Positions 43,433-59,290 of a stretch of 64,000 nucleotides of DNA are shown one piece after another. How positions within the stretch are numbered: position 1 is the first letter of the stretch; each line of letters opens with the position of its first letter. The stretch is from an uncultured virus (IMG/VR IMGVR_UViG_3300021185_004515) (Duplodnaviria > Heunggongvirae > Uroviricota > Caudoviricetes). A program made the translations under genes and the position numbers. The notes under the pieces are model-generated. The model had not been told where the DNA came from. It did no database searches and saw nothing but the letters and a program-made list of their open reading frames with translations. The stretch lies in IMG/VR virus record IMGVR_UViG_3300021185_004515. The stretch is one strand, 5' to 3'.

Positions 43433-43465
43433 AACTTCAAATAGGAAACAACCGTAGTGATAGTT

Positions 43466-44416
43466 ATGCTCTCTCGTGATGCTTCAAATCGTGCTGCCAT
43501 AGCGGTCGCACGAGTAATCACTAATGGCGAAAGTTTCTCGGCAGCGGCTCGTTCAGTAGGAACTACGGTGCGAACACTCAAAATGTTTCTCACAGAAAAT
43601 TCTATCGGAATGGAACGAGTGTCGGGTCGTTGGAAAATAATTAGGTCTGCGGCTCAGAAAGTTCCTGAGTTTCTCACTTTGATGTGGTCGGGTGAATCTG
43701 CTACTCGTGCGGCACAGTCATTGAACACTACCGTTCGCACCATCAGTAATCAAATGTTGCCCGATGATGCTGGCACACCTCGTCCAGTTATCGTCAAAGT
43801 AGGCAACACTTGGACTCCTAATTTTTTGGGAGTCCGAGATTATAGCATGACCCTGCACGGGAGTTTGATTGGATTAAACGATTCTGTGCAAGGAAGAGGA
43901 GAGCAAGCGGGACCCGATGCCGACCCAGATGATGCTGATGCGGAGTATGCAGATATTTGGTGGCAGATAGATTTTAACAATTTTGAATCCTCCTTGCCAA
44001 TTTCCGAAGTGGGTAACTTTTGGAGATTGCCGATTGTAGACTATTTGCGTAGTTATCTGGAATCACCTTCTCAAGTCAATACTTCATTAGCCAACAGATT
44101 TTTAGGTAATGCAGATGTGACCTCGGCTGCGGGAGTGGCGGGCAGAATCGCCGCAGATGGCTCTATGATGCTGACTCGGTTGGAACAATTCTTGGAGAGA
44201 TATGATTTGCGAATGGCTCCCGATGTTACGATTGGAGTAGAACCTGCGTCGGGATTGGTAAGTCCTGTGCGATGGATTTGGGTCAATGATTTTGGAACTA
44301 ATTCTACTCGTGTGGCTTCGGGGCTGTGGCAAGTGATGTTCCTCACCAATTCTGAAAGAGAAGAATACCCGATTACTATCAATTATGAATACGACTTGCT
44401 GGATGAAGTTGAGTAA
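43466..44416 (+). CDS. Protein with tandem N-terminal HTH repeats
   Basis: GESFSAAARSVGTTVRTL and GESATRAAQSLNTTVRTI; start set 30 nt after TTCAAATAGG. Confidence 0.75.
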   Translation: MLSRDASNRAAIAVARVITNGESFSAAARSVGTTVRTLKMFLTENSIGMERVSGRWKIIRSAAQKVPEFLTLMWSGESATRAAQSLNTTVRTISNQMLPDDAGTPRPVIVKVGNTWTPNFLGVRDYSMTLHGSLIGLNDSVQGRGEQAGPDADPDDADAEYADIWWQIDFNNFESSLPISEVGNFWRLPIVDYLRSYLESPSQVNTSLANRFLGNADVTSAAGVAGRIAADGSMMLTRLEQFLERYDLRMAPDVTIGVEPASGLVSPVRWIWVNDFGTNSTRVASGLWQVMFLTNSEREEYPITINYEYDLLDEVE

Positions 44417-44465
44417 TGTTAAATAGGTAATACTACTGATATACAATTACCTTACTGGTGATATT

Positions 44466-44873
44466 ATGGAACAAGAAATTATGATTGCTGCTGGTGCTGT
44501 GGGTGTCGTCCTTGCTGGCGCAGCCGCTCGCTGGTGGAATAAAAACCGAAACAAGATTGCAGACAAGATTGAAGATACTTTGGAAGATGCAATAGAAGAC
44601 CTGACTGGAAAAGATGTAGAACTTGGCGAAATCGTTGATGAAGTCATGGAATCTGCTGATGAAGTCGTTGAAGAAACTGTGGAAGCAGTAGAATCTGGCG
44701 AAGATGTCGTGGAATCTGTCAAAGAATCCGTTGCAGAAGAGGTTGAGGAACTAAAGGAAGATTTGTCTGCTCTTACTGTGGCACAACTCAAACTACGGCT
44801 CAAGGAAGCAGGATTGCCTGTTTCGGGAACCAAACTCACACTTATCAACCGACTTTCGGAGATGGTAGAATGA
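44466..44873 (+). CDS. Membrane-anchored SAP-domain protein
   Basis: N-terminal TM, acidic linker, LSALTVAQLKLRLKEAGLPVSGTKLTLINRL. Confidence 0.85.
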   Translation: MEQEIMIAAGAVGVVLAGAAARWWNKNRNKIADKIEDTLEDAIEDLTGKDVELGEIVDEVMESADEVVEETVEAVESGEDVVESVKESVAEEVEELKEDLSALTVAQLKLRLKEAGLPVSGTKLTLINRLSEMVE

Positions 44874-45034
44874 ATTGGAACTGGAAAAATATGGGTCTTG
44901 GTGCAAGCCTCGTGTCAATTTTGGGTAGCATTGCTATTTACTTCGCTCACGATGAGAATCTCGGTATTTTTGTCGGACTTTGGGCATCTGCGCTGTTGCT
45001 ATTGAGTGACCGCATGGCTGAATTGAAGGAATAA
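44870..45034 (+). CDS. Small two-TM protein (54 aa)
   Basis: Hand-translated ...SILGSIAIYF...GIFVGLWASALLLL. Confidence 0.7.
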   Translation: MNWNWKNMGLGASLVSILGSIAIYFAHDENLGIFVGLWASALLLLSDRMAELKE

Positions 45035-45064
45035 CTTAAATAACAGCAATACGAAAGTATTGCT

Positions 45065-48000
45065 ATGGCTGACTTCTACTCCATTCCGTTGGAGGAAATG
45101 GATGCGTTCTTGCGTTCCAGAAGGTTTCAACCTGTTGATTTAACCTATCGTAACCGCCCTGTGATGGAATGGGTCTATGAAAGACCTTTGCCTCGGCAAC
45201 CGAATCATTTTGTGAGAGTCTATACTGGAATCAACCGTTATGGTCGTTCACAGAATCAAAGTCGTGGTGCGGGAAAAGACGCTATCCGTGTGCAAGTTAT
45301 TTACAAAAGCGGTGATGTGGAAACATTAGTGACTCAACCCAAGCGTGTGCATCGGGTCACAGGATGGGCAGATAATCTGGACAACAGGCTATCAGAAATC
45401 GCCCAATCGTTACCACAGGTGGTATTTGACCGTCGTGGAGAACCCATGACTTTGAGGCGTAAGAATGGTAAGTATTTCTGGGGCAGTAGAGATTATCCTC
45501 GCTACAAAGAAACCCGTCCTTTTCAAGCAGAAGAATTTAATGGTGAAATGGAGGAATACGCCTATGGTGATGTTGATGATGGTTTTACCTCAATGTCTAA
45601 TCTGGCTCACATCTCTTTGCCCGATTACGAAGAATCTTATTATTGGACTTCCGTAGATGGGAACTCAAGGGCTACTGTGGCTTATGATGAAGATAATGAA
45701 GTCATCATTATCCCTAACTTTGAAGTATCGTTGCGTGTGCGGGGCAAGAAAATGGCTCACAAATACTTAGAAGAAATTATTGATGATACTTACCGAGATG
45801 GATATTCTGTGCAAGTCACAGATGTTGATAATCATGCTATCGGTTTTTGGGAAAAGATGCAAAGTCAAGGTTTGATTGAGAGTTGGACGCAGGGAAGTTT
45901 CGCTGCTGAGGGTGCGCCATTATCGGGACAAACTACGGAAGCACCCTATGAAATTAAGGTGTATGTTCCCTCTACTACCTTAGACCAACCCATTAGTGCC
46001 AGCGATTTCAAATCTCGTATTGATGAAACTCAAGAAAAACTCTCAGAATTGTTCGGAGGATTTACTACTGTTGATGCTTCAGGAGGATATTTGAGTCAGC
46101 AAGATGGTGTGATTAGTGAACCCGTTATTGTGGTATCATCGTGGGCTACTGAGGAAGATTACCAATCAAAATTGGGCGATTTAGAACGCTTCTTGAAACA
46201 AAAGAAAGATGATTGGGGCCAGGAAGTCATTGGATTTGAGTTTGAAAATGATTTCTTTATGTATCCTGCTTTTGAAGCCGAAGATGAAATTCCCATTATT
46301 GACCTTAACTCAAAAAAAGAAATTGAAGAATATGGGTTGTTTAAACCATACGAACCAAATCCCTGGCACAGAGAGGAATGGAGGCGTAAATCATTAACTG
46401 ATGCACCCGAAAACAGCAATCTATTTCGCATCAATTGTGATGGTGTGTATGCAGTAAGAACCATTTATGGACCTTCTAAAATAATTTTTGGAAGGAATAT
46501 GTTGGCTTCTAATAAAGTATCTTTCAATCGTGCCGAACAGCGAAATCTATCAGGGGTGTGGGGGCTAATGGGATTGCCCAGAGATAATAGTGGAGTAGTA
46601 AGTGCATTTGGGCCTCTTGAAAACATAGAGAAAATGCCTCAATTCTCGGAGAGACCAGCAATCTACCTCTTAAATAAAAAGGAACTGATTCCTAACAGAA
46701 TTGTTATCAATATGAAGGGGCTGGTTTTTGCTTACGACATCGTGCATCGTGAGGTTGAATTTTATGGTGGAGTGCCACAGTCAAGCATTGTATCAGAAGA
46801 CATCCCTCCTGAATGGGTCAATCCGCAGGAGATTAGCAAACCTCTTTTCGCTGCGGAAGATGATTATGACTCTACTTATGGAGTGGAACAAGCCAAGATT
46901 CGCAGAAGATTAAAGAATAAAATTAAGAAACAAGCCATCATGGGAACCAAGGCGGGTCAATGGTCGGCTCGTAAGTCCCAAGAATTGAAACGACAATACG
47001 AGGCTGCTTGTGATAAAAAAGGTTTGAATTCATACAAGGGTAAGAAAACTAAATCGCAAGATAATCTCAGTAAATGGAGCAAACAAAAGTGGGGAACGGC
47101 TTCAGGAAAGAAGTCATCTACTACTGGCGAACCATATTTCCCTGCCAAAGCAGTTGCGGCACTCAAAGACAAAGGATTATACTCCAAAGCCAAGCAACAA
47201 AAGAAAGCCGCTACCAAGGCAGGAAAGCAAAACGCTCGTTACAGTGACGACATTCGTGCCGTAGTCAAAAACTATCGCTCTGAAACATATGAGGAAGCAA
47301 CAGGCGTAGAATTTTCTGAACAAAACCCTGAAAAGATTGAGGCAGACGCTCCACCCGATTGGAGGGAATCTATCATTACCATTCCACAATCAGATTCTTT
47401 TGGCTATGCTTTGTATCGCAAAATGTCAGACTTAACCTATAATCAGGTATGGAGGGTATTGGAAATTATTGATGACCTAAATCGTATGAGTCATCACCAT
47501 GCTCTAACCAGATTTAGTAGCAACTATGTAGAAATTTGGATTTACAGCCATGATAGCGGATTGGTTATGCCGAAAGATTATCATTGGGCCGAAGATTTTA
47601 ATGACATGATTGCTACGGTGGACTGGCAAATGTGGGAGTCCGAAACCGAATGGGAAGAGGTTGATTGGGAAAAAGAAAAACCAGCGAAAGACCAAAATGA
47701 CTGGGGCGATGATGTAGAGTGGGAGGCTGAAGATGACTGGGGTTCGTTGCGTCCAGAAACTCGCCCAGAATTTCCAACCGTTGATGCTAAAATTGCCTCT
47801 ATGCTGCGAAACCACTCCAAAGTTAATGTCAATGGTGAACAAGGATGTCCTCGCTGTGGACAAGAAGATTTATTCTATCGTGAATCCACAGGAACGGGGA
47901 CCAAATGGTATTGTTATGGGTGCTTCTATACTGAAAAGACAGAATCTCAGAAAAGTCAAAAGATAATCACTTTAGAAAAATATGGTCTGAAGGTTCGGTG

Positions 48001-48082
48001 TCCCGATTGTGATGAAATGATTGTGGCTTATAATCAAGCCTCACTCAATAGCCACCGTAAAAAATGTGGGGTGACTAAGTGA
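45065..48082 (+). CDS. Mosaic polyprotein with about seven unrelated modules joined by xAE/xSE junctions
   Basis: GNAT-like, DUF3574-like, DUF5872-like (GQWSARKSQ), PCD-like (HH...YSHD) and Zn-ribbon modules. Confidence 0.9.
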   Translation: MADFYSIPLEEMDAFLRSRRFQPVDLTYRNRPVMEWVYERPLPRQPNHFVRVYTGINRYGRSQNQSRGAGKDAIRVQVIYKSGDVETLVTQPKRVHRVTGWADNLDNRLSEIAQSLPQVVFDRRGEPMTLRRKNGKYFWGSRDYPRYKETRPFQAEEFNGEMEEYAYGDVDDGFTSMSNLAHISLPDYEESYYWTSVDGNSRATVAYDEDNEVIIIPNFEVSLRVRGKKMAHKYLEEIIDDTYRDGYSVQVTDVDNHAIGFWEKMQSQGLIESWTQGSFAAEGAPLSGQTTEAPYEIKVYVPSTTLDQPISASDFKSRIDETQEKLSELFGGFTTVDASGGYLSQQDGVISEPVIVVSSWATEEDYQSKLGDLERFLKQKKDDWGQEVIGFEFENDFFMYPAFEAEDEIPIIDLNSKKEIEEYGLFKPYEPNPWHREEWRRKSLTDAPENSNLFRINCDGVYAVRTIYGPSKIIFGRNMLASNKVSFNRAEQRNLSGVWGLMGLPRDNSGVVSAFGPLENIEKMPQFSERPAIYLLNKKELIPNRIVINMKGLVFAYDIVHREVEFYGGVPQSSIVSEDIPPEWVNPQEISKPLFAAEDDYDSTYGVEQAKIRRRLKNKIKKQAIMGTKAGQWSARKSQELKRQYEAACDKKGLNSYKGKKTKSQDNLSKWSKQKWGTASGKKSSTTGEPYFPAKAVAALKDKGLYSKAKQQKKAATKAGKQNARYSDDIRAVVKNYRSETYEEATGVEFSEQNPEKIEADAPPDWRESIITIPQSDSFGYALYRKMSDLTYNQVWRVLEIIDDLNRMSHHHALTRFSSNYVEIWIYSHDSGLVMPKDYHWAEDFNDMIATVDWQMWESETEWEEVDWEKEKPAKDQNDWGDDVEWEAEDDWGSLRPETRPEFPTVDAKIASMLRNHSKVNVNGEQGCPRCGQEDLFYRESTGTGTKWYCYGCFYTEKTESQKSQKIITLEKYGLKVRCPDCDEMIVAYNQASLNSHRKKCGVTK

Positions 48083-48513
48083 ATATCATAAATTGGATTA
48101 GAAAACCCGCATTACTATGGACTTTTTCACGAAGTTACCCGAACCTTGGTAGGGATTTTTTTTATGCTCCATCTCGTGAACACGCCCAAGCAGAAATTAT
48201 ACATCTTATGAGAATGAATCATGGTGATGACATAGGTGAATTGAGGTGGGAGCCTTTTGAAAGCGATGGACTCATTACTATGTTGAGTGAATATGATGGT
48301 AATAAATTGGTTGAGGGTTCGTGGGGCTACTTAAAATTAGTAAGTAGTGATGTTAAAACTTTAAAAGAAATAATTGATGATTCTGTGCAACTCTCAGAGG
48401 CGGAGTTGGAAGCAAAACAAAAAAGAGTTGAAGCCTACATGAAAAAACTAACTGGTGGTGGTGGCTATTGGGACCCGCAAACTTATACCGACGATTATCA
48501 ACCCTATGAATAG
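48079..48513 (+). CDS. Hypothetical protein with N-terminal IINW
   Basis: MNIINWIRKP; GGGGTGA SD. Confidence 0.7.
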   Translation: MNIINWIRKPALLWTFSRSYPNLGRDFFYAPSREHAQAEIIHLMRMNHGDDIGELRWEPFESDGLITMLSEYDGNKLVEGSWGYLKLVSSDVKTLKEIIDDSVQLSEAELEAKQKRVEAYMKKLTGGGGYWDPQTYTDDYQPYE

Positions 48514-48549
48514 AGATTAGTTAAATAGGTGATGCAACTACTAAAAGGC

Positions 48550-51500
48550 ATGACTCAGTGGACGCATGATGAATACATATCTCGTCTAAACGCTGACGCT
48601 GATGCTGCATACCTAATCGCTGATGCTGCCCGAGCCAAAGGATATGACCCACGAATCACAGTGGAAATACCTCAAGCGTTTGATTTGGCAGACCGATGCC
48701 AGAAATTACTGGAATTTTTACACCCTCGTAGAACTGCTGAACAGATTCGTGCGCTAACCGAATCACACGATGGAAACCGTGAAATGGTGGCTCTGGATAT
48801 TGCTAAAATCGTTACTGCGGAATCATGGTTGTATGGTATCAAAAATAAATGTGATTCTTGCGGTGGAGAAAAAGTCGTCAAAAAGGGAAGACGAACTGTG
48901 AGTTGTGATACTTGCGATGGAACTGGGATGATTCTGAACTACTCCGAAGATATTGAATTAGACTATGAAGAAACTCTGCAAAAATTCTCTGATAATGAGC
49001 GAATCATCAAAGACGACACTTTCGGAGCATTGTGTATCTATCATGGAGTGTGTGCAGGATTAGCAGTATTGACTGAAGGAATCTTAGTGGCTCCCTTAGA
49101 AGGTGTGGTATCGTGTCGTATTGTCATGAATGAAGACCGTAGCAAATCATTAGCCATCAACTTTGCAGGGCCTATCCGAAGTGCAGGTGGCACAGGTCAA
49201 GCCTTGTCGGTGCTGATTGGTGATATTATCCGTCGTGAGTTCGGGTTAGTCCCTCCTAAGATTACTTTTGAAGAGGCTGAACGATACAAAGAAGAAGTCA
49301 GTAAATATGCTCGTGGCCTACAATACCGACCTTCCAATCCACAATTGGAGATTATTGCTTACAACTGTCCTGTGTATATTGATGGTGAAGGTGTAGGTAA
49401 TGAAGTCTCAGGTCAGCGTGATTTACCTCGTGTTCCAACCAACAAAGTCCGAGAAGGGATGCTGCTGGTTATGTGTGAGGGTTTGGTATTGAAGGCTCCC
49501 AAGATTTTGAAATACACGGAAGCATTGGGATTCAAAGAATGGGATTGGCTAAAGCAATTTACCAGCAAGGGAGATTCGGATGCTAAGAAAGCATCTATTG
49601 AACCTAACTACAAATTCTTGGCCGATATTTTAGCAGGTCGTCCTATCTTTTCTCGCCCAATGGCTCGTGGTGGTTTCCGACTACGATATGGCCGTAGTAG
49701 ATTGGCAGGATTAGCCACTACTGCTATCCATCCAGCCTCTATGAGAGCCGTAGGTAGTTTCCTCATTGTTGGGACTCAAATGAAATATGAGCGTCCTGGA
49801 AAAGCCACTGTGGTAACTCCTTGCGATTCTATTGAAGGGCCATATGTAGAATTTACCGATGGTTCGGCTCGTCGCATACAAGAAATGGATGATTTGGAAG
49901 ATGCAGTCCCGACGGAAGAAGAATGGAATATTGCTCGTGTTTGGGATTTGGGAGAAATTCTGGTTCCTGTGGGTGAGTTCTTGGAAAATAACCATCCGTT
50001 AGCACCCAGCCCTTATGTTCACGAATGGCACGAGTTAGTTGTAAGTAAAGAAGAACTTACTTATCCAGAAACATTTTCTGAAGCATTAAATCAGTCCCAG
50101 AAATTTAATATCCCGATGGCTCCTGAGTATATTGCTCATTATAGTGACTTGCTTCCTGAAGAATTGCAGACTCTGTTGCAAGGTATGACAATCACTGATG
50201 GTCTGGCGCAAGTGGAGCCAGATGTATTAGAAATCATTTATCGGCTCAACATTGATGTTGATGTTAATCGGTGTTTATCTGGGGACAAATCGGAGTTACT
50301 TTTGAATCTCTGGAATTCAAAATCTCAATTGGATTTTAATTCTGACTCGGACGGTTCAGCATTGGGAGTTATCCGAAACTTTTACAATTTTCCAATTGAA
50401 AATCCTATTTCTATCCGTATCGGCGGGCGAATGGGAAAACCCGAAGGAAGCAAACTACGAGAAATGAAACCTCCGATTCATTGCAACTTCCCTGTGGGCT
50501 TCAATGTGGGTAGTCAAAGACTACTAAGAACTGCGGCTGACCAGCAAGAAGATGTAGAAACTGGGTGGCGTATGTGTGATGTTTGTGAGGAAGCAACTAT
50601 CTGGGGTGTTTGTTGTGGAGCCGAAACTCGTTTCGTCGGATTGAAGTGGGATAAGGTTGGAATTAAAGATTTGTATGAGTCGGCCTTGGAATCTGCGGCG
50701 ATTGCTGATGGAAAAATCAAAGGTGTAAAAGGAATCACCAGTTCGGAGAAAATCCCTGAGCATCCTCTCAAGGGTGTGTTAAGATACAAGCATGGAATTT
50801 CTATGTTCCGAGATGGAACAATTCGTTTTGACATGGTGGACATTACCATGACTCACTTCCGACCCAGAGAAATTGGGATGACAGTGGAACAAGCGCAAGA
50901 ATTAGGATATGACTGTTTAACTCTGGACGATGTTTTAGAGTTGAGACCACAAGATGTGGTGTTGCCTCAGAATTGCTCAGAGAAAATTCTGGCTACGGCA
51001 AATTATATGGATGACTTGTTAGGCTCTATGTATGAATTAGAGCCCTATTACAATTGTGATACGGTTAATGACTTGATTGGACATTATGTGATGGGTATTG
51101 CCCCTCACACCAGCGGAGCAATCTTGGCACGAATTATTGGGTTTGCTGATGTGAAAGGACATTATGGACATCATTATTATCACGCAGCCAAACGCCGTAA
51201 TTGTGATGGAGACATTGACGCAGTATTATTGTTGCTGGATGGATTGATTAACTTTAGTAAAAAATTCTTGCCAGGACACCGAGGCGGGCAAATGGATGCT
51301 CCCTTGATTTTAACTACCAAGATTGTGCCGTCCGAAATTGATAAGGAAGCCTTGAATGTAGAGATTGTAGACCACTATCCGTTGGAGTTCTATGAATTAA
51401 CTCAAGGCATTGAAGATGAAGACGGAGATTTGGTCCCACCACCTGCTAAAGCAGCCATAGCCGCAGGAGTAACCATTGTGGAGTCGGTGTTAGGCACAGA

Positions 51501-52077
51501 CTTGCAGTATGTCGGCCAGAAATTTACTCACGACACACGAGATTGCAGCGAAGGGCCAGCCAACAACCCTTACAACACTCTGGACTCTATGCGACAGAAA
51601 ACCATGGCTCAATTTGCTTTAGGAGATTGCTTGCAATCAGTAGATAATAAAGAACAGTCCTCCCGATTGATTCAACGACACTTGATTCGGGATATGAGGG
51701 GTAATCTCAGAGCCTATGGGCAACAAAAAGTCCGTTGTCCTAAGTGCGGTGGTAAATACCGTCGTCCACCTATTTCGGGTCGCTGTATGACTATTCTGGA
51801 AACTAAACAGAATCCATTTTCGGGCGAAACTGAGCAGATTTATTGTGATGGTAAAATTATTCTGACGGTGACGCATGGTTCAGTGGCTAAGTATGATAAA
51901 CTCATGGCTGAATTAGTGAATCGCTACGGGGCTGATGATTATACCGCAGGATTGTATGAGCAAGTTAGTCGCTGGGTAAAAGATACCTTTGAAGATAAAA
52001 ATATTCTGAGTCAATCAAAATTACCATTACCTGAGAGCGATTCATCCGAAGGTTCAAATAGCAGCAAAACCAAATAA
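48550..52077 (+). CDS. polC: DNA polymerase D large subunit (DP2)
   Basis: ARAKGYDP, LAVLTEG..VAPLEG, FAGPIRSAGGT, GGFRLRYGRSR, IGGRMGKPE, DGTIRFD, HAAKRRNCDGD, GGQMDAPL, C-terminal Zn finger; start set 29 nt after the promoter. Confidence 0.97.
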   Translation: MTQWTHDEYISRLNADADAAYLIADAARAKGYDPRITVEIPQAFDLADRCQKLLEFLHPRRTAEQIRALTESHDGNREMVALDIAKIVTAESWLYGIKNKCDSCGGEKVVKKGRRTVSCDTCDGTGMILNYSEDIELDYEETLQKFSDNERIIKDDTFGALCIYHGVCAGLAVLTEGILVAPLEGVVSCRIVMNEDRSKSLAINFAGPIRSAGGTGQALSVLIGDIIRREFGLVPPKITFEEAERYKEEVSKYARGLQYRPSNPQLEIIAYNCPVYIDGEGVGNEVSGQRDLPRVPTNKVREGMLLVMCEGLVLKAPKILKYTEALGFKEWDWLKQFTSKGDSDAKKASIEPNYKFLADILAGRPIFSRPMARGGFRLRYGRSRLAGLATTAIHPASMRAVGSFLIVGTQMKYERPGKATVVTPCDSIEGPYVEFTDGSARRIQEMDDLEDAVPTEEEWNIARVWDLGEILVPVGEFLENNHPLAPSPYVHEWHELVVSKEELTYPETFSEALNQSQKFNIPMAPEYIAHYSDLLPEELQTLLQGMTITDGLAQVEPDVLEIIYRLNIDVDVNRCLSGDKSELLLNLWNSKSQLDFNSDSDGSALGVIRNFYNFPIENPISIRIGGRMGKPEGSKLREMKPPIHCNFPVGFNVGSQRLLRTAADQQEDVETGWRMCDVCEEATIWGVCCGAETRFVGLKWDKVGIKDLYESALESAAIADGKIKGVKGITSSEKIPEHPLKGVLRYKHGISMFRDGTIRFDMVDITMTHFRPREIGMTVEQAQELGYDCLTLDDVLELRPQDVVLPQNCSEKILATANYMDDLLGSMYELEPYYNCDTVNDLIGHYVMGIAPHTSGAILARIIGFADVKGHYGHHYYHAAKRRNCDGDIDAVLLLLDGLINFSKKFLPGHRGGQMDAPLILTTKIVPSEIDKEALNVEIVDHYPLEFYELTQGIEDEDGDLVPPPAKAAIAAGVTIVESVLGTDLQYVGQKFTHDTRDCSEGPANNPYNTLDSMRQKTMAQFALGDCLQSVDNKEQSSRLIQRHLIRDMRGNLRAYGQQKVRCPKCGGKYRRPPISGRCMTILETKQNPFSGETEQIYCDGKIILTVTHGSVAKYDKLMAELVNRYGADDYTAGLYEQVSRWVKDTFEDKNILSQSKLPLPESDSSEGSNSSKTK

Positions 52078-52082
52078 ACACT

Positions 52083-52328
52083 ATGTCAGAATTGCCCGAC
52101 GATATATCTGTCGGAAACAACGATTCACCTGATGTGGTAGAAGACATTACCATGCAAATGATGTTCTCAAAAATATCTGAGGTTTTGGAAATGAATGATT
52201 TGTTGCATTCGGAAATGACTGAAATCAAGAAAACCCTCAAAGCCATTGTAGAGGTTGCTAAAGCGGCTACTGAAGAGAAAAAACCTGCGGCTTTCAAGGA
52301 TGATACCAATAATTCTATGTATGGTTAA
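52083..52328 (+). CDS. Small coiled-coil protein
   Basis: TTCAAATAGCAG 30 nt upstream. Confidence 0.65.
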   Translation: MSELPDDISVGNNDSPDVVEDITMQMMFSKISEVLEMNDLLHSEMTEIKKTLKAIVEVAKAATEEKKPAAFKDDTNNSMYG

Positions 52329-52666
52329 TCTCGCATCAGCGGAGATTCTCGGACAGTATCTACCATCACTTGTAGTGGAGCGGTGGGAGTTACCTGTATG
52401 CCATCCATTTCTATCCCTACATTGGCTGCGGCACCGATAATAGTTTCTAATGATTCAATAATCAGCCGAATACCTTGACGATATGCCGCTAACTGCCCTT
52501 CAGCGGCTTGTTGTATCTGTTCTATATCTCCTAATATATTATCCAGACCTTGTTCGGTTCCACTAATGGCAGAGGAGATAGCCAGTTTTAGCATCTGATT
52601 TTCCGATTCTAATCTTTCAATCTCGGCACTGGTTACTAACCAATTGATAGGAGTAGGGAGTGACAA
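52325..52666 (-). CDS. Coiled-coil protein with N-terminal PINW
   Basis: MSLPTPINWLVTSAE; GGAGG SD before TTG. Confidence 0.7.
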   Translation of the reverse strand: MSLPTPINWLVTSAEIERLESENQMLKLAISSAISGTEQGLDNILGDIEQIQQAAEGQLAAYRQGIRLIIESLETIIGAAANVGIEMDGIQVTPTAPLQVMVDTVRESPLMRD

Positions 52667-52668
52667 TT

Positions 52669-52920
52669 CTAAGCCTCCAGACCCAAACCTGACATTTCAT
52701 CAATTACTTCTTCAGAGGGGGTGTTTTCTAAATAGAGATTCTCATATTCGGAATTGGAAGTTTTCTTCTCATAAGCCATATCTGCACCTCCCAATAACAA
52801 AAGTGTTAGGCCAGCCGTAGAAACTGAGGGGCTGCTGTTGGAATAGGTAGTAAAAGACAAAATTCGCCCTGCTACTAACATGACGGCTCCGAGCCCAATG
52901 ATTTTAGAACCATCTATCAT
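52669..52920 (-). CDS. Small two-TM protein
   Basis: Hydrophobic segments; TTAAATAACAG 29 nt upstream. Confidence 0.7.
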   Translation of the reverse strand: MIDGSKIIGLGAVMLVAGRILSFTTYSNSSPSVSTAGLTLLLLGGADMAYEKKTSNSEYENLYLENTPSEEVIDEMSGLGLEA

Positions 52921-52953
52921 GGTTAATATGGGTCGCTACTGTTATTTAAGTTC

Positions 52954-53124
52954 TTACTCGTCTGCTTTGGTTTCGGGGTTCAAGACAGCCTCGGAAAGAT
53001 GGGGTGTAATTTGTTCCAAAATACCGCTAACAATCAGGATAGCAGACCGACCTGCCAGATTGACATTATCCAGCAAGTTGTAAAGAAACTCGCACTGTTG
53101 AGTGGTGAGCGTTACTTCGGGCAT
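52954..53124 (-). CDS. Small protein (56 aa), possible fibre chaperone
   Basis: Hand-translated MPEVTLTTQQCEFLYNLL...; TTAAATAGGTA 29 nt upstream; follows the fibre genes. Confidence 0.6.
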   Translation of the reverse strand: MPEVTLTTQQCEFLYNLLDNVNLAGRSAILIVSGILEQITPHLSEAVLNPETKADE

Positions 53125-53159
53125 AGTTATTCACTACGGTTCTACCTATTTAACCCTTA

Positions 53160-53855
53160 TCATGCTAACAATCCGTATTGTTGGAGTGCGGTAATGATTG
53201 AATTGAGTGAGGATTGGATGTCATTGAAGTTCCCGTCAGCAGTTGCAGATAAGGCAGCCAAACTTGAGGGGTCGGTTGGATTGGCACCATATGGATTTGC
53301 GTTTTGTTGCGCCACAGGGGTTGTTCCCATAAATCCTAATGTGCTGGATGGGTCTACTCCGACGGACAAATTGCCTGTGACTGTCATAGTTGTGCCGTCA
53401 AAAGTCAAATTGGCTTCTCCTTGTAGGGCGTTAGCACCTGTGACGGTGGAAATGGTATTGTTGGTGCTGCCTGAAAGTGTCACACCTCCTCCTGTCCCAC
53501 TTGAAGCGGCAGTTATCCTTCCTTTTTGATTTACAGTAACGGTGGCGTTGGTATAAACTCCTGGTGTAACTGCGGTATCGGTAAGAGCAATAGTTCCTGT
53601 GGTAGTAACTGGGCCTCCTTGTAATCCGACTCCTGTGGCTACTTCGGTAACTGTTCCTGAGCCACCTCCACCTCCGCTGGATGAAATTACAACTGTGTTG
53701 CTGGTAGTTCCATTAAGTGTGATTCCTGCTCCTGCGACTAAATTTAGAGTCGGGTCAGGAGTAATCGTGGTTTGACCTGAAACAGTTCCGCCATCAGCAG
53801 ATGTCTTGATAGTTGGACTTCCTGCCCCGCCTTGTCCTGAATAACCATTTGCCAT
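53160..53855 (-). CDS. Fibre/spike-like structural protein
   Basis: GTVTEVATGVGLQGG..TTTGTIAL...GRITAA repeat; C-terminal IITALQQYGLLA. Confidence 0.8.
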   Translation of the reverse strand: MANGYSGQGGAGSPTIKTSADGGTVSGQTTITPDPTLNLVAGAGITLNGTTSNTVVISSSGGGGGSGTVTEVATGVGLQGGPVTTTGTIALTDTAVTPGVYTNATVTVNQKGRITAASSGTGGGVTLSGSTNNTISTVTGANALQGEANLTFDGTTMTVTGNLSVGVDPSSTLGFMGTTPVAQQNANPYGANPTDPSSLAALSATADGNFNDIQSSLNSIITALQQYGLLA

Positions 53856-53899
53856 AATAAATATTGGGCTGTGCTGCTATATCAATCTTATCATTTACT

Positions 53900-55072
53900 T
53901 CACTGATAAACAGGAATATACATCGGACCCATTCCTATATCAATTTGTATCCAACCTGCGGGATTCAAAGGAGCAGGTTGTTCCCAATCGGGTAAGGCTG
54001 GAACAGGTGTTGGTGGAGCCGCTGGCGGAACGAAAGTTCCATTAAGATAGGCTACATCTTGCAGGTTGCTGGCCGAACTAATATCACCGTTTCCATTTGA
54101 AACCAAAACCGCATTCGTGGAATTGGTTTGACGGATGGTGCCTGAAACATGAAGTTTGGTTGATGGGTCGCTGGAGCCTAATCCAATACCGACATTTCCG
54201 CCACTTGTAATTCTAAAAATGGTATCGCTGGCTCCAACAAACCCTGAAGAACCATCACCATAAGAAATATCAAAAGGTCCGTTAGGTGGGTCCACATTGT
54301 TTCCATCTCTTTGTTGCATTTGCCACCTAAAGGCTTCTACTGGTTCGCCACCCCCGAACTCATTGTTTTGCATCATTATTCCGCCGTAGAAATTGAAAAG
54401 AATGTTGGCTTCATTGGTTTCAAAGCGAGAAAGTGGTATGGTCGGGTCTTGCGTAGTGTTGCTAACATGAAGATTGTGCGAGGGAGTAGCCGTTCCGATA
54501 CCAAGTCGGTTATTGGTATTATCCCAATACAATTCTCCGTTGTCTTGTGCAAGATTTGTTCCAGCATCTACGAATAAAATTGAACCCGAGGTTCCGCTAC
54601 CGACGGCATCACCAATAGAGATTCCACCTCCGCCTCCACCCGAACCATCTGCTGCGGCAGTAATTCTTCCTTGAGCATCCACGGTAATGTCAGCACTTGT
54701 ATAACTTCCTGCGGTAACCGCAGTATTGGCTAAGGCAATAGTTCCGCTTGAAGTAATAGTTCCTCCATCTAAACCTGTTCCTGCGGCAATCTGTGTGACA
54801 GTTCCTGCATTAGCAGTATATCCTGCGTCATTGGCAAGAAGTGAAACGGGATTTCCAGGTTGCACGGCAGTATCGGCTACACCTCCTTGTGCAGCAGTGG
54901 CAAAATCTCCTGTGTCGGCTTGAGCAGCACTTCCGAGAGTTATGCCATCAAGTTGATTTAACTCCGCAGCAGAACTGGTAACCGCAGCGTTATTGATAAA
55001 TAATTTATTAGAACCTACCTTGACCTCATCAGATGCCGTCACATCTTTAACACGGAATGGTTGTTCACCCAT
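53900..55072 (-). CDS. Fibre/spike-like structural protein
   Basis: AAELNQLDG, GTVTQIAAGTGLDGG, WDNTNNRLGIGT..P...LHV, GNVGIG...P..KLHV. Confidence 0.85.
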   Translation of the reverse strand: MGEQPFRVKDVTASDEVKVGSNKLFINNAAVTSSAAELNQLDGITLGSAAQADTGDFATAAQGGVADTAVQPGNPVSLLANDAGYTANAGTVTQIAAGTGLDGGTITSSGTIALANTAVTAGSYTSADITVDAQGRITAAADGSGGGGGGISIGDAVGSGTSGSILFVDAGTNLAQDNGELYWDNTNNRLGIGTATPSHNLHVSNTTQDPTIPLSRFETNEANILFNFYGGIMMQNNEFGGGEPVEAFRWQMQQRDGNNVDPPNGPFDISYGDGSSGFVGASDTIFRITSGGNVGIGLGSSDPSTKLHVSGTIRQTNSTNAVLVSNGNGDISSASNLQDVAYLNGTFVPPAAPPTPVPALPDWEQPAPLNPAGWIQIDIGMGPMYIPVYQ

Positions 55073-55112
55073 ATAATTTATGGGTGGTTGCTACTATTTG
55101 AATGTTAGGTTA

Positions 55113-56126
55113 TCAAGCAATAGTCTGCCGCATAAATCGGACAGTTAGATTGTTTGACCCTGTGCGAGTCAATTGAACGGCTGGACTGGCTGCGGAGGTG
55201 ACATTTACGGTGAACAAAGGTGCTGCGCTGGTAAATACATCAGCAAAAGGAACGAAACTACTGGCTGCACCATCGGCAGTAACTAATAATTCGGTGGTTT
55301 GTGATTCTGAGGTGGTGGCATCAAAGGCAGTAATCACATATTTAGCACCCTTGTATGCCGAACCTGCAAAAGTGTCAATAGAGGTAGCCGAACCTGACGA
55401 AATTGTAGTGGTGTTGCTCTTGAAAGCACCATAGACTGAACCTCCTGCACCGATTTGTAATAATTCGTTAGTGGTATCAATATTAAATGAGGCATCTACG
55501 GAGAATCCTCCGCCACCATCTGATAGCAAAATATCTCCTGCGGCTCCAGGTGTTGAGGCTCCTGCATCAGTTTCCCAAGTTACAGTTCCTGCACCATCGG
55601 TCTTTAGCACTTGATTAGCAGAACCGTCTGTGACAGGTAGGGCAAATGCACCAATAGTGAAATCTGTGGCTCCTGAATAATCCATGGCTCCTGAAACTGT
55701 TGAGCCTCCTGTTCCAGTTAATGCTCCTGCTCCAGCAGACACACCGACACCAGCAATTTGTCCCGATGCTGTAATGGTGGTGGCTCCTGTGATTGCACCG
55801 CCCGTAATGTTGAGTTGTCCATCAGTAAGGCTTCCACCAATAATTGCGCCCGAAGCATTGACTGAAACGGCATTGGTGATACTTCCTGCATTTATAGTGA
55901 GAGTCCCGTCGGTGAAACTACCACCAGTAATTGCTCCTGAAGCATTGACAGTAGTGGCTCCTGCGATTGCACCTGCATTAACAAGACCTCCTGCACTTGC
56001 ATCTAATCCTGCACCTGTAATCAAACCAGTGGCTGTAATGGTGGTGGCACCTGCGATGGCACCGCCCGAACCAATAGTAATTGTTCCATCGGTGGCTTGG
56101 GTAAAGCGGAACGCTTGTTGTGCCAT
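55113..56126 (-). CDS. Fibre-like structural protein
   Basis: GAI.GATT repeats, LP..DGSANQVLKTDGAG; C-terminal Y...KY.I.......Q..ELL domain. Confidence 0.85.
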   Translation of the reverse strand: MAQQAFRFTQATDGTITIGSGGAIAGATTITATGLITGAGLDASAGGLVNAGAIAGATTVNASGAITGGSFTDGTLTINAGSITNAVSVNASGAIIGGSLTDGQLNITGGAITGATTITASGQIAGVGVSAGAGALTGTGGSTVSGAMDYSGATDFTIGAFALPVTDGSANQVLKTDGAGTVTWETDAGASTPGAAGDILLSDGGGGFSVDASFNIDTTNELLQIGAGGSVYGAFKSNTTTISSGSATSIDTFAGSAYKGAKYVITAFDATTSESQTTELLVTADGAASSFVPFADVFTSAAPLFTVNVTSAASPAVQLTRTGSNNLTVRFMRQTIA

Positions 56127-56161
56127 ATACTACTATTCTGGTTTTTGTTATATAAACTTGT

Positions 56162-56821
56162 CTAACTAAGCAACGACCGAATTACTTTAACGGTGTGGTT
56201 GTTGGCAGAGCCTGGGGTGAATTGTAAAACAAAATTAGCCCCAGAAATTACACCATTAAAACTTCCTAATGGTGCATCGCTAAAGATGGTGCCATATTCT
56301 ACTACATATCCTGTGGTTCCATCATGAACGCCCAATAATTCTGAGGTCTGATATTCTCCTGCGGTGGTGTCGGCTACTTGAATAATGTATTTTACTGAGC
56401 GATAACTGCCAAAGCCCCAAGAATCTATGTTGGAAACTGCGGCTCCCGTAGTGGTTTGAGAACGAGTAGTGAGATTCATATCATTGATAGATAGGCTCCC
56501 TGAGCCTGTGATGCTTAAAATGTTGCTGGTGGCATCAAAAGAAAAGTCATTTTTGCCCCCAATAGTATCTAATGCTGTGGCGTAGGCCACTTGTGTGGGT
56601 TGAATAGTGCCTCCAATTGAGCCACCTCCACCTCCGCCTCCTGACGATTGAATAGTAATGGTGTTAGGGTCACTTCCTGTGAGAGTAATATTAGACCCTG
56701 CTACCAAGTTAATTTCTTGTGAGCCATCTAAGGTTGTATCTCCTGCAACAGCACCAGCACCTGCTGATAAATTGATTTGAGGACGACCTGCAAATCCTGT
56801 CCCAGAAAACTTTTCAGCCAT
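56162..56821 (-). CDS. Fibre-like structural protein
   Basis: NLVAG..ITL.G shared with 53160-53855; C-terminal domain shared with 55113-56126. Confidence 0.8.
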   Translation of the reverse strand: MAEKFSGTGFAGRPQINLSAGAGAVAGDTTLDGSQEINLVAGSNITLTGSDPNTITIQSSGGGGGGGSIGGTIQPTQVAYATALDTIGGKNDFSFDATSNILSITGSGSLSINDMNLTTRSQTTTGAAVSNIDSWGFGSYRSVKYIIQVADTTAGEYQTSELLGVHDGTTGYVVEYGTIFSDAPLGSFNGVISGANFVLQFTPGSANNHTVKVIRSLLS

Positions 56822-56838
56822 AGTGGGTCACCATACTA

Positions 56839-57783
56839 TCAGACACCGCCCTCTAAGGCTTGTCGTCCAGTATCAGTGAATCCTGTTTGTTGCTCAGACC
56901 ATCCAACGAACACTGCTTGAACATTGCCTGTAAGGGTATCAACACCTGCAACTGCACCAGTATTGATAACACGGAATACAACTTGCTTTTCTACCACCAG
57001 AGGAATTTCAAACTTCCATTGGTCGGATTGTGGAACAACTACGCTCCATTGGAAATCGTCCCATTCAAAAAGTAGTTCTCCGTCTACCCAGATTTGATAC
57101 CTAACGGTTGAAGCACCATTAGTAGTAGGTTCTGTGTGTCCAAAGCGAGAAACTAAATATAGTTCATTCTTACGACCTGCTTCAGTGGCCGTGGAAGTTC
57201 CTGTGGTGGTAATTCCTGTGAACAAACCTCCGCCGCTACGAGCCCCAGAAGGAGTTCCTACGGAGTTCGGAGTAAAGACCTGACCACCAACTGAAGTGGA
57301 TGCAGTAGACGGAAAGGTTGGAACGGTAGAATCAGGAAGTGCAGATGCAGCAGGTGAGCCGCCGACCCAACTTTGAGTTCCCAAGACACGAGCATCATTG
57401 ACATTGATAACTACGGCATCAATATATTCTCCAGCATCTAAAAATCCTCCTGCTAATCCTGTGAGAGAAACTACTTGGCGTTGAATAACATTCGCAGAAT
57501 TGCTTTTCGGAACCAAATGCCACGGATAATTCTCTGAATTGACATTGTTAGGGTGCAACATCAGATTTTCCATAGCGGGGCGAACTGGACGCTTATAGGT
57601 TGAAGGGTCAATTCCAACTCGCTGCGGAGAGGTAGCAACCGAAGTTTCGGTGCTGTATGAAGAATAAGGAACAGGAGTTGAATTAACTGCATCTCCTTTC
57701 AGTGAATATCCTGTTTGGAAAGCCTTCTTACGGTAGGCTCGTTTGAGCCCACGGATGTTATCGTTGGTATCTCCTGACGGCAT
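56839..57783 (-). CDS. Beta-rich putative structural protein
   Basis: S/T/G-rich linker; C-terminal beta-sandwich-like pattern. Confidence 0.75.
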   Translation of the reverse strand: MPSGDTNDNIRGLKRAYRKKAFQTGYSLKGDAVNSTPVPYSSYSTETSVATSPQRVGIDPSTYKRPVRPAMENLMLHPNNVNSENYPWHLVPKSNSANVIQRQVVSLTGLAGGFLDAGEYIDAVVINVNDARVLGTQSWVGGSPAASALPDSTVPTFPSTASTSVGGQVFTPNSVGTPSGARSGGGLFTGITTTGTSTATEAGRKNELYLVSRFGHTEPTTNGASTVRYQIWVDGELLFEWDDFQWSVVVPQSDQWKFEIPLVVEKQVVFRVINTGAVAGVDTLTGNVQAVFVGWSEQQTGFTDTGRQALEGGV

Positions 57784-57797
57784 GAAATCACCTATAA

Positions 57798-58523
57798 TTA
57801 CTTTTGGTCCTTCCTGTTATTTAAGGTTAAGCCAAGTTTGGGAGCCATTTTTTGTGCTTCCCGTTGTTCTTTCCAGTATTGTGTAGATGTGGCTAAATAC
57901 CACTCCCAAGAACTGGTGTCTAATCCACGACTCAATAATAGTTGTCTGCGGAACCACTCTACATTATCTACACTTACTTCAATACCCAGCGATAGCAATT
58001 GCTCACAAATCAAAGCATCAGAGCCTGAAAAAGTCCAATATTGAACAAAAACACGAGCCGCAGGTCTGGAGAGAGCCCAAGTTCCTGTGGGATATTCATT
58101 CAGGATGGCATATCGGATGTCCCAAGTTTGAAACGGTCTGACATAAACATCTGGTTGCAGCAAATAACCATAGTTAGAGGTTAAATCTTTGGGAAATGCT
58201 GATGAATCTCCTGAAACGCCCCAAGATTTGATGTTTTCAGGGTTTTGATAATAATGTGTGCTGTTGATTACTATCTGAACAAAGCCATTGGGCCGCCATT
58301 GTAGAATATTTCCCAGAGTTACTAATGGTGCGGCTGAAATTCCTGGGGTGCTTCCAAAATCATCTATCACAACGAAATGGTCTTCTCGGACCATGGCTGT
58401 TTCGGTAATCTCATTACCATAGCCGCTGGTAAAGATAGAAAATTGGTTGGCAGGATTAGGTAGGTTACTTCCGTCTGCCGCAGGAATTAGTTCCCACAAA
58501 TATATTTGTTTGCGAATCATCAA
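57798..58523 (-). CDS. Putative structural protein, paralog of 58520-59290
   Basis: Shared RxQxYxW, FxVID, YVxPxQTW, GSDALI. Confidence 0.8.
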   Translation of the reverse strand: MMIRKQIYLWELIPAADGSNLPNPANQFSIFTSGYGNEITETAMVREDHFVVIDDFGSTPGISAAPLVTLGNILQWRPNGFVQIVINSTHYYQNPENIKSWGVSGDSSAFPKDLTSNYGYLLQPDVYVRPFQTWDIRYAILNEYPTGTWALSRPAARVFVQYWTFSGSDALICEQLLSLGIEVSVDNVEWFRRQLLLSRGLDTSSWEWYLATSTQYWKEQREAQKMAPKLGLTLNNRKDQK

Positions 58524-59290
58524 CTCAACCTCCTGGGAACATCCTCTAAAGCCGCTTCGTATTCATTTCTTTCCGAAATATCTGCCATCAATTTGTTGCG
58601 AATTATCATTCTTTTGTGCGCTTGAACAGTTTTCACATTGACAGGAATATTCTGCTTCATTAAAAAATTGGCTATCAGTGCATCAGAACCATCAAATAAA
58701 ACATACTCCAGATAAACTCTGGGAATCCATATATCTCCATCTTCGTCGTTAATAGCGGTGGTGACGGAATAATCCCAACTTCTGGTGGCTACGCCTGATG
58801 TTTGTGCGTCATAGGCCACCATCGTCTGTTGCAATTGATTGATTGAATAATACACTCCCCAAGTCTGACCAGGAATTACATACATCGGAGTGTCGCTGAG
58901 GTAAAAAGATGGGCTAAGTGATTGAGGTCCATAACGCAATCCTGGGGATGGGCCATAGGGTGAGGCGTTACCTGAAATTCCAGGGCCTACTACATTATCA
59001 GGCTGTTGAAAATACTGGGTGGTTTCTACCCAAATATTGGCACTGGCGGCAGGAGGCCATAGTGAGAGTTCATCAATAACAATAAATTGAGTCGCTTTAA
59101 CATAGCCAGGAATGTCTAAATTGTTGCCCAATCCTCCGACAAAAATGTCTACTTGGGCATTAGCATGAGTTCCCCACGCAGGAATCGCAGGAGATAAAGT
59201 CAAAATGGGGTCTTGGTTAAGAACATATGGTGTCGGGTAGGTAGTAGAGGGAATCAAACCTCTCCACTCATAAACCTGACGGCGCATCAT
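58520..59290 (-). CDS. Putative structural protein, paralog of 57798-58523
   Basis: Same shared blocks; TTCAAATAGCA 30 nt upstream. Confidence 0.8.
   Translation of the reverse strand: MMRRQVYEWRGLIPSTTYPTPYVLNQDPILTLSPAIPAWGTHANAQVDIFVGGLGNNLDIPGYVKATQFIVIDELSLWPPAASANIWVETTQYFQQPDNVVGPGISGNASPYGPSPGLRYGPQSLSPSFYLSDTPMYVIPGQTWGVYYSINQLQQTMVAYDAQTSGVATRSWDYSVTTAINDEDGDIWIPRVYLEYVLFDGSDALIANFLMKQNIPVNVKTVQAHKRMIIRNKLMADISERNEYEAALEDVPRRLS

Follow-up and report, generated by a model that had tools for sequence, protein, structure and literature searches.

A probable virus-borne large subunit of family D DNA polymerase in an abundant marine lineage of linear DNA elements

The closest described counterparts of the gene reported here are the large catalytic subunits (DP2) of the cellular family D DNA polymerases (PolD) of P. 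abyssi and T. kodakarensis (PDB 6HMS, 6T8H and 6KNB), which have the same three domains, DGD loop and zinc module. Table 1 of Koonin et al. 2020 gives PolD for Archaea only, and the same article sets cell-associated two-barrel (DPBB) polymerases against virus-associated palm/RRM polymerases and calls this split enigmatic (PMC7281927). Among viruses, the magroviruses (Magrovirales, e.g. Aoguangviridae) and the Adrikavirales of Poseidoniales are uncultured marine archaeal entities with double-stranded DNA (dsDNA) and a near-complete archaeal-type replisome, like the element described below, and encode PCNA, primase, helicase, ATP-dependent ligase and TFB (PMC10768690). Described viruses of Poseidoniales are tailed, have genomes of 87-100 kb and use PolB or the replisome of the host (PMC10768690, PMC13108676 and PMC11706807). 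In a full-text literature search, which had subscription journals and supplements outside its scope, we found no report of a virus-encoded PolD; word matches to 'DP2' in two virus papers were grant numbers rather than the polymerase and were discarded. Here, we report on the DP2 gene of a 64-kb stretch of the IMG/VR record IMGVR_UViG_3300021185_004515 (hereafter the window, along which all positions are counted). We propose, at a probability of roughly 75%, that this DP2 is encoded by a virus, that the window makes up the left ~64 kb (about the left third) of a linear dsDNA element which measures roughly 150-170 kb and ends in inverted terminal repeats (ITRs), and that the element belongs to an abundant and diverse marine lineage which captured its DP2 once and long ago.

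The features of the DP2 gene referred to in the following are:

48520-48527, plus strand: promoter-like TATA-type box GTTAAATA, ending 22 nt upstream of the DP2 ATG at 48550
48550-52077, plus strand: DP2, large catalytic subunit of PolD, 1175 amino acids (aa), with Pfam and PDB matches
48850-48915, plus strand: N-terminal, zinc-ribbon-like CxxC..CxxC insert in DP2, clade-specific
51199-51219, plus strand: catalytic loop NCDGDID, aligned to NCDGDED of P. abyssi
51736-51846, plus strand: C-terminal zinc module with four cysteines (C1070, C1073, C1086 and C1106), invariant in 33 of 33 aligned sequences
52012-52074, plus strand: C-terminal tail QSKLPLPESD..., in place of the QxxL[W/F] end of most members of the clade

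Translation of the reading frame 48529-52077 on the plus strand gave no internal stop, and the protein matched the Pfam domains PolC_DP2_N (1.4e-78), PolC_DP2_central (4e-90) and PolC_DP2_cat (8.9e-110) over its full length, with domain scores of 264, 303 and 367 bits compared to a Pfam cut-off of 24.3. Solved DP2 structures from P. abyssi and T. kodakarensis likewise aligned to it from end to end (E ~1e-206), and a protein with 99% identity exists in another record. In the alignment, the first two aspartates of NCDGDID are the counterparts of D956 and D958 of P. abyssi, which are described as invariant and critical for catalysis in Sauguet et al. (PMC4996933). The original prediction for this locus, namely a complete DP2 with the catalytic CDGD motif, was thereby borne out. 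The CDGDID variant, which it had singled out as unusual, does replace CDGDED but is no peculiarity of this gene: N891, D893, G894, D895, I896 and D897 were invariant in all 33 sequences of our alignment A1, which holds the window DP2 and 32 relatives. Since both the catalytic and the zinc residues are invariant in 33 of 33 sequences, the window DP2 looks functional. Judged by its sequence, it is a true DP2 and a viral variant of a known enzyme family, and is predicted to be enzymatically active. The zinc module corresponds to the DP1-binding region of solved PolD and, by analogy, would have the same role here.

The relatives of this protein form a group of their own. Among 1.84 billion representatives clustered at 50%, the element lineage was present as a single representative, P0030 (61% identity, 1,512 bits), followed by P0180 (53%, 1,097 bits), while the others reached at most 799 bits with 36-48% identity among full-length matches; the nearest cellular DP2 with a named source was 44-48% identical. 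A word-indexed protein search yielded 7,642 matches at E ≤0.001 among 8,000 candidates, and the best 120 of these proteins were 54-99% identical to the window DP2, all with the three DP2 domains. A first tree was calculated with FastTree from 198 rows, comprising 43 of the element clade, 139 of 149 representatives (those below 1,000 aa were left out) and 16 named cellular loci. All 43 element rows fell into one clade (SH-like support 99) with P0180 as sister and a shared stem of 0.50. A second tree of 60 rows (IQ-TREE in quick mode, LG+G4, rooted on Hadarchaeota) again united all of its 16 element rows (SH-aLRT 99), which were joined by P0180 with a support of 100 and a stem of 0.55 and then by P0206 with a support of 88. 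In this tree, the clade was nested within a 33-row group (support 89) holding all seven rows with a named source: four Thermoplasmatota, one Methanomethylophilaceae, one Thermoplasmata HGW and one 'Euryarchaeota archaeon'. DP2 proteins from metagenome-assembled genomes (MAGs) labelled Thermoplasmatota, Thermoplasmata or Methanomethylophilaceae were thus the nearest named relatives in both trees, with a stem of ~0.5 substitutions per site between them and the element clade. For the DP2 gene, the trees indicate an origin in Thermoplasmatota, which need not include the present host; Thermoplasmatota or Marine Group II (MGII) archaea are candidate hosts.

Three structural features accompany this separation. 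First, the CxxC..CxxC insert was present in 43 of 43 element-clade rows and in none of the 155 other DP2 rows, P0180 being among those without; its cysteines were invariant in alignment A1, and the insert region is ~60 aa longer than in P. abyssi. Second, DID replaces DED throughout the element clade and likewise in the sister P0180, there as NSDGDID, whereas P0206, P0190, P0182 and P0187 carry NCDGDED. Third, most element DP2s terminate in QxxL[W/F], a shortened PIP-like tail. The window and its subclade (P0002-P0005) depart from this pattern, with QSKLPLP followed by an acidic, serine-rich tail and the aromatic end gone. The Thermoplasmatota-labelled DP2s differ on all three counts, since they terminate in KKxxLxDF[FL], have CDGDED and lack the insert. 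Compared to the DP2s of P. abyssi and T. kodakarensis, the window protein has CDGDID for CDGDED, the N-terminal insert, a different tail and no intein, and it resides on a virus-like element. As the C-terminal cPIP of P. abyssi DP2, KKRVISLEEFFS, binds both PCNA and primase (PMC7101311), the altered tail, together with the insert, may adapt DP2 to partners encoded by the element itself.

The P0180 lineage was marine, was found on contigs of up to 85 kb and combined NSDGDID with the absence of the zinc insert. We found no P0180 locus in viral contigs; P0180 may stand for the cellular donor of the gene or for a second lineage of elements.

Relatives of the window itself were recovered by alignment-based scans, whereas single-protein locus scans with DP2 returned nothing and none of 50,697 deposited phage records was matched by DP2 in tblastn. 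The alignment scan of IMG/VR identified four contigs of 123-166 kb (G001-G004) with DP2 proteins 56-59% identical to that of the window. A scan of 185,579 species, represented by one genome each, with two clade-invariant peptides from the alignment gave 29 loci: a single close full-length one (56%) on a 136-kb contig (G005, locus L001) in a MAG labelled Rickettsiales, 27 archaeal ones at 34-46% identity and, in a 'Shewanella' MAG, a fragment of 34 residues. The genes flanking DP2 were the same in five of five independent contigs (L001 and L030-L033). Of 77 open reading frames (ORFs) in the window, 41 matched G003 or G004 by BLASTP in collinear order, corresponding to ~0.4-70 kb of G003. The latter contig measures 166,176 bp and has an ITR of 3,463 bp with 99.4% identity between the copies; the terminal inverted repeat of G004 comprises 99 bp and may be what the assembly retained of a longer repeat. 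A window ORF at 557-856 is 34% identical to an ORF of the G003 repeat, so that the window probably begins near the left end of the genome.

The G003 repeat (L037 1-3463 and the end of L045) carries at least seven mirrored ORFs. On the minus strand at 1167-1232, the window has a 22-aa fragment with 77% identity (E 1.4e-6) to a 212-aa jelly-roll protein described below, which may be a gene remnant near the terminus.

A chimeric or chromosomal origin of the window had been named as what would refute the original prediction, and it was addressed from several sides. Read data from 14 DNA runs of at least 13 studies, seven of which may be the source of the window, held at least 95% of the sampled words of 46000-55000, and two other of these 14 runs are labelled viral metagenome. 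Contigs assembled from the two virome-labelled runs and an estuary run covered all of the 30 bins into which 41000-60000 was divided, evenly and at 11-15x. The upstream junction of DP2 was spanned by record 11 of X12 (48004-50514) and the downstream junction by record 28 of X8 (48527-52718), record 6 of X11 (51351-53436) and record 13 of X12 (51043-53423). Because both junctions were bridged at even depth in three independent runs and the synteny is conserved, there is no sign of chimerism. With regard to cellular genes, the window contained neither tRNAs (0) nor Rfam families (0), and no ribosomal or translation proteins were among the Pfam matches of the 65 window ORFs scanned. A search for the remainder of the window's contig with an exact 50-base pattern gave 0 matches in the metagenome and viral contig collections.

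These data bear on the reading of the window as part of the chromosome of an uncultured archaeon, or as a chimera of a cellular DP2 and viral DNA. It could appeal to DP2 being otherwise a cellular hallmark, to members of the clade in NCBI MAGs and to G002, which IMG/VR calls a provirus while labelling the relatives viral. The MAGs in question are labelled Flavobacteriaceae, Bacteroidetes, Rickettsiales, Woesearchaeota and Thorarchaeota, however, and such labels scattered over unrelated bacterial and archaeal phyla are probably due to mis-binning of a mobile or viral contig; a cellular origin also sits badly with the single full-length clade member in 185,579 species genomes. G003 is bounded on either side by ITRs of 3.46 kb, and a single tRNA was found in it, likewise in G004. 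Together with the 64 kb free of rRNA, tRNA and ribosomal proteins, the synteny in five contigs and the bridged junctions, this largely refutes the chromosomal or chimeric reading, to which we give next to no credence. The claim of a distinct lineage of a large archaeal virus or element was, in contrast, upheld by conserved synteny, a separate DP2 clade and a non-cellular context.

Likely partners of DP2 were found in the relatives. No DP1 or PolB was matched in Pfam among the 65 window ORFs, and a tblastn search of the window with DP1, PCNA and TBP of a relative gave nothing (best E 2.3-3.0), in line with the original observation that the window lacks DP1 and PolB. Outside the collinear part, a Pfam scan of 125 G003 ORFs revealed DP1 (OB, Metallophos and DNA_pol_E_B domains), PCNA and TBP as well as a FEN-like 5'-3' exonuclease, an ERCC4 nuclease, dCMP deaminase, Fpg, UvdE and a C5 methyltransferase. 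DP1 was detected by Pfam in G001, G003 and G005 and by BLASTP in G004 (79%), while PolB (PF00136) was absent from all four related records searched, with control genomes positive. Thus, the search for DP1, PCNA and PolB that had been recommended at the outset ended with DP1 and PCNA in relatives and PolB in 0 of 4. The gene set of these relatives is unusually cell-like for an archaeal virus. We infer that PolD is the replicase of the element.

Further G003 genes encode an ArsA/Get3-type ATPase (113253-114446), a Cdc48-like AAA ATPase (74595-76001), the above TBP (148369-148935) and a B12-dependent class II ribonucleotide reductase (127131-129197).

Alternatively, DP2 might be a passenger host gene, serving takeover or repair or simply decaying, with the genome being replicated by host enzymes or an unrecognised polymerase. 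A protein with family X polymerase domains is also encoded in the window, DP1 is missing there, and the window's subclade has a changed clamp/primase tail at the C-terminus, all of which would suit a passenger. Such a gene would hardly be expected to form one old clade, set apart by a long stem and a distinctive insert, to keep the same neighbours in five of five inspected relatives, to retain many columns, every catalytic and zinc residue among them, invariant in 33 of 33 sequences, and to co-occur with DP1, PCNA and a primase-like gene in records of which none of four has PolB. We therefore consider the passenger reading very unlikely and retain that of a DP2 belonging to the element's own replisome.

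Whether the element forms particles was assessed from its late genes, for which the window has the following rows:

53160-56821, minus strand: fibre- or baseplate-like variable late genes, with domain-level PHROG matches to very large fibre/baseplate proteins
56839-57783, minus strand: late protein of 314 aa with a jelly-roll core, capsid-like by AlphaFold2 (AF2) model and structure search
57798-59290, minus strand: two adjacent paralogues (241 and 256 aa) of the 212-aa jelly-roll protein, 33% and 27% identical to G003 78260-78898

The 212-aa protein, encoded at 78260-78898 of G003, is the most conserved late protein of the lineage (62-75% identical among G001, G002 and G004); it has an adjacent paralogue in G003 besides the two in the window, and 1,653 homologues at E ≤1e-5, the top 120 of which are at least 71% identical. 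Its AF2 model (pLDDT 82) was placed by VIA-align closest to the capsid protein of SPV1, with Z 8.5 and a root-mean-square deviation (rmsd) of 3.2 over 127 aa, which is 2.2 Z units above the next row, HHIV-2. Foldseek put VP17 of P23-77, SPV1 (probability 0.99), SH1 and HCIV-1 on top, with E of 6e-3 to 1.5e-2. The protein encoded at 56839-57783, for which 143 homologues are on record, has a core modelled at pLDDT 85-94, and VIA-align placed this core closest to chain 6h82_b of the HHIV-2 capsid, with Z 9.3 and an rmsd of 3.1 over 111 of 135 aa, and next to SPV1 (Z 7.6); Foldseek matched it to SH1 capsid chains (probability 0.99). The single jelly-roll capsid proteins of SH1, HHIV-2, HCIV-1, SPV1 and phage P23-77 are thus the best structural matches of the two late proteins, and these viruses likewise have an ATPase of the FtsK/HerA family; the late proteins share no sequence similarity with the SH1/HHIV-2/SPV1-type capsids, and the matches are moderate and non-exclusive. 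SH1-like viruses also have linear genomes with ITRs. To our knowledge, the genomes of icosahedral membrane viruses of the SH1 type measure ~16-31 kb and lack a polymerase gene.

The candidate packaging enzyme is encoded at 93944-95233 of G003. Its ORF matched phrog_2666, annotated 'terminase large subunit', at 1.7e-13, as well as HerA/DUF87 chains in the PDB (best 1.2e-8, nine at E ≤1) and the Pfam family DUF87 at 4e-4. By sequence it is an FtsK/HerA-type ATPase with a putative role in packaging; it is 61-69% identical in G001, G002 and G004 and has no copy within the window. In view of the HerA/DUF87 matches, the phrog_2666 label was rejected as proof of a tailed virus. A phmmer search of the ORF at 95262-96425 of G003 against the PDB gave nothing useful.

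On this evidence, the element is quite probably a particle-forming virus. The main competing reading is a non-viral extrachromosomal replicon with its own PolD and no virions, such as a linear plasmid, a mini-chromosome or a Borg-like element. Long ITRs are a feature of Borgs and occur on non-viral linear elements, and Borgs resemble the PolD lineage also in being large, linear and archaeal and in having many function-unknown genes; they differ in habitat, in their host Methanoperedens and by their much greater size. The accessible part of a Borg paper (PMC12660748) revealed no connection with PolD, and its two word matches to 'DP2' were grant numbers. A replicon without virions would account for the lack of any capsid, portal or terminase family by Pfam or PHROGs. 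HerA/FtsK and TraG-like P-loop ATPases serve conjugation and defence, too, and the jelly-roll fold is widespread, the BFVD matches including C1q-like domains. It would leave unexplained, however, why two unrelated conserved late proteins best match SPV1, HHIV-2 and SH1 capsids with two independent aligners, why the 212-aa protein has so many homologues and its nearest Atlas clusters are 95-100% viral by label, why the DNA is found at full depth in two virome-labelled runs and the relatives are viral in IMG/VR, and why there is a long one-strand late block including fibre-like genes. We regard a replicon without virions as improbable.

A separate question, limited to the type of virion, is whether the element is instead a tailed Caudoviricetes virus of the HK97 type, i.e. 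a giant relative of the magroviruses, in which the jelly rolls would be decoration or fibre proteins. The viral labels of the Atlas clusters nearest to the 212-aa protein are mostly Uroviricota, the phrog_2666 match and the baseplate and tail-fibre domain matches in PHROGs fit a tailed virus, as do the cyanophage virion proteins and C1q-like fibre heads among the neighbours in BFVD. Against this, scans of 65 window ORFs and of G003 (125 of its ORFs in Pfam and 71 in PHROGs) gave no match to an HK97 capsid, a portal or a terminase large subunit (TerL) family, and none of the four related records contained PF05065. The ORF labelled 'terminase' matches HerA/DUF87 both in the PDB (1.2e-8) and in Pfam, and both jelly rolls have tailless archaeal virus capsid proteins as best matches among solved structures. 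Long ITRs are, moreover, unusual for tailed viruses. Magroviruses and Adrikavirales have HK97 capsid and terminase, whereas the PolD lineage has genomes of 123-166 kb or more, ITRs, no PolB and no detected HK97 hallmark. A tailed virion is therefore unlikely in our view, and a tailless capsid of jelly-roll proteins, as suggested by the models, is our leading guess.

Several points weigh against our interpretation and are collected here. The window lacks DP1, PCNA and the candidate packaging ATPase, all three of which were found in relatives instead, and since DP1 is missing from the window, a PolD holoenzyme for its element has to be deduced from relatives whose DP2 is 54-59% identical. In G002, a 123-kb fragment, DP1 was found neither by Pfam nor by BLASTP. 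Because the window subclade has lost the aromatic tail end, docking to the clamp may differ. On the side of the virion, none of the proteins can firmly be called a major capsid protein, portal or terminase. The jelly roll is a common fold to which the structural matches are of moderate strength (Z 8.5 and 9.3; Foldseek E 2e-3 to 1.5e-2), and the BFVD neighbours of the 212-aa model are mixed, comprising uncharacterised phage proteins, C1q/TNF- and collagen-like fibre heads and cyanophage virion proteins. The gene context was inspected for 6 of the 43 'element' rows, the rest being assigned by sequence clustering. In the DP2 phylogeny, which the original prediction had wished to see drawn against cellular Poseidoniales, the element DP2s did form a clade of their own, but both trees are without named Poseidoniales DP2. 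Metatranscriptome contigs of one dataset which partly cover the stretch were not used, as they are contig-level data and no proof of transcription.

With respect to expression, the box upstream of DP2 resembles the TATA-type boxes of archaeal promoters with leaderless transcripts. The motif STTAAATA occurs 22 times in the window (for example at 5291-5298, 19075-19082, 26803-26810, 45035-45042 and 48520-48527) compared to 5.7 expected copies; 22 copies were reached in 0 of 100 shuffles. Of the 22 copies, 14 lie 22-23 nt upstream of an ATG opening an ORF of at least 50 aa, among them 45035-45042 before the gene at 45065 and 48520-48527 before DP2. The recurrence of this spacing at 14 genes suggests a uniform TATA-type promoter and leaderless mRNAs. 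As the GTTAAATA box ends 22 nt before the ATG at 48550, this position is the better start of DP2, and both the start and the gene's own promoter, as originally proposed, gained support. The same box and spacing were observed in G001 (12 of 17 copies) and G002 (10 of 21), but not as a rule in G003 (0 of 3) or G004 (2 of 9); G003 has GTTTAAGTA 22 nt upstream of its DP2 ATG.

A majority of the 65 window ORFs scanned in Pfam and PHROGs had no family, and the matches obtained make up a replication, repair and transcription set. Besides DP2 and the late genes, the following genes were annotated:

7051-9255, plus strand: protein of 734 aa with family X polymerase thumb and palm (DNA_pol_B_thumb 1.1e-19, palm 8.8e-5)
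9282-10187, plus strand: AEP primase-like protein, tentative (weak LigD_Prim-Pol match, E 0.0018)
19106-20047, plus strand: transcription factor TFIIB/TFB (TFIIB 1.8e-42), 52-58% identical in G001-G004
20090-20701, plus strand: nuclease related to archaeal Holliday junction resolvase (Hjc) (Endonuc_Holl 3.3e-18)
26019-26762: PP2C phosphatase
26834-29056, plus strand: XPD/Rad3-like superfamily 2 helicase (Helicase_C_2 2.7e-11, ResIII; phrog_2488 1.5e-67)
29078-29644: deoxynucleoside monophosphate (dNMP) kinase
41753-43432, plus strand: helicase, possibly MCM-like (phrog_10371 DNA helicase 3.3e-14; weak MCM_lid match, E 0.029)
44466-44873: SAP-domain protein
45065-48082, plus strand: mosaic multidomain protein of 1005 aa with its own STTAAATA box at 45035-45042; weak DUF5872 and PHROG matches only
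48079-48513, plus strand: ORF of 144 aa directly upstream of DP2, no family match
61671-62816, minus strand (ORF to 62837): ATP-dependent DNA ligase (DNA_ligase_A_M 1.9e-23; phrog_114 8e-66), start set from the promoter box

The tentative primase assignment is accompanied by weak DNA_primase_S (PriS-like) matches of the homologues in G001, G003 and G004, i.e. in three of four records. The helicase at 41753-43432 is syntenic and 44-51% identical in all five relatives. For both proteins, phmmer searches against the PDB gave nothing. The large ORF at 45065-48082 had been taken as part of a polyprotein operon upstream of DP2; we found no evidence for a polyprotein and regard it as a mosaic, of which 150 aa are 85% identical to a G003 protein carrying a Cu/Zn superoxide dismutase domain. 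One virome contig contained a variant of this gene with a 363-nt deletion, missing 45540-45904. The ORF between the mosaic gene and DP2 (48079-48513) had no homologue in G003 or G004. Downstream, the expected fibre genes were recovered in so far as the block at 53160-56821, conserved with G003 only, gave fibre- and baseplate-like PHROG matches; another part of the block is jelly-roll and capsid-like.

As side observations, modules of 135-177 aa in the proteins at 7051-9255 and 45065-48082 share 66-86% identity with segments of large G003 and G004 proteins to which there is otherwise no relation, which suggests shuffled domains or mobile inserts. The collinear region is interrupted by a variable island at 30464-38691 with three large ORFs without family match (30464-33526, 34376-35671 and 35671-38691; 1020, 431 and 1006 aa); two of them lack homologues in both G003 and G004, while the third has a marginal one in G004 (24% over 205 aa, E 2.5e-6). 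Two tandem paralogous late genes on the minus strand (59329-59856 and 59870-60355; 175 and 161 aa) both match one and the same G003/G004 gene.

Taken as a mechanism, our interpretation would run as follows. DP2 would have been taken once, long ago, from a Thermoplasmatota-like archaeon and kept since, and would be expressed as a leaderless mRNA under a TATA-like promoter of its own. Its zinc module would pair with a DP1 proofreading subunit, encoded in the right part of the element's genome, and DP2-DP1 would replicate this genome without PolB, alongside PCNA, AEP-type primase, MCM-like helicase, FEN-like nuclease and ATP-dependent ligase that are likewise encoded by the element. More speculatively, the ITRs and the Hjc-like resolvase might allow the ends to be replicated via concatemer or hairpin resolution.

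A bolder version, which we put forward tentatively and to which we give less than even odds, is that of an undescribed, globally abundant lineage of high rank, consisting of tailless archaeal viruses of ~150-200 kb with linear ITR genomes, single jelly-roll capsids, HerA/FtsK packaging and a complete replisome of archaeal type around their own ancient PolD (DP2, DP1 and PCNA). If true, these would be the first viruses known to replicate with a two-barrel DNA polymerase, the assumed split between DPBB replicases in cells and palm replicases in viruses would be broken, and there would be a mobile vehicle for PolD genes among archaea.

The literature found treats PolD as exclusive to archaeal cells. 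This distribution is altered by a diverse and abundant clade of viral PolD that comes with DP1, PCNA and structural signatures of its own. The probable mis-binning of such elements puts archaeal replication genes into bacterial bins, where a stray DP2 could mislead comparative genomics. For biochemistry, the clade offers natural PolD variants with a zinc insert, an altered clamp/primase tail and an E-to-I exchange in the catalytic loop. The elements would represent archaeal viruses ~1.6x larger than those described among the largest (90-100 kb, PMC10768690). Probably, this lineage copies its linear genome of ~160 kb with an enzyme that was not previously reported from a virus.

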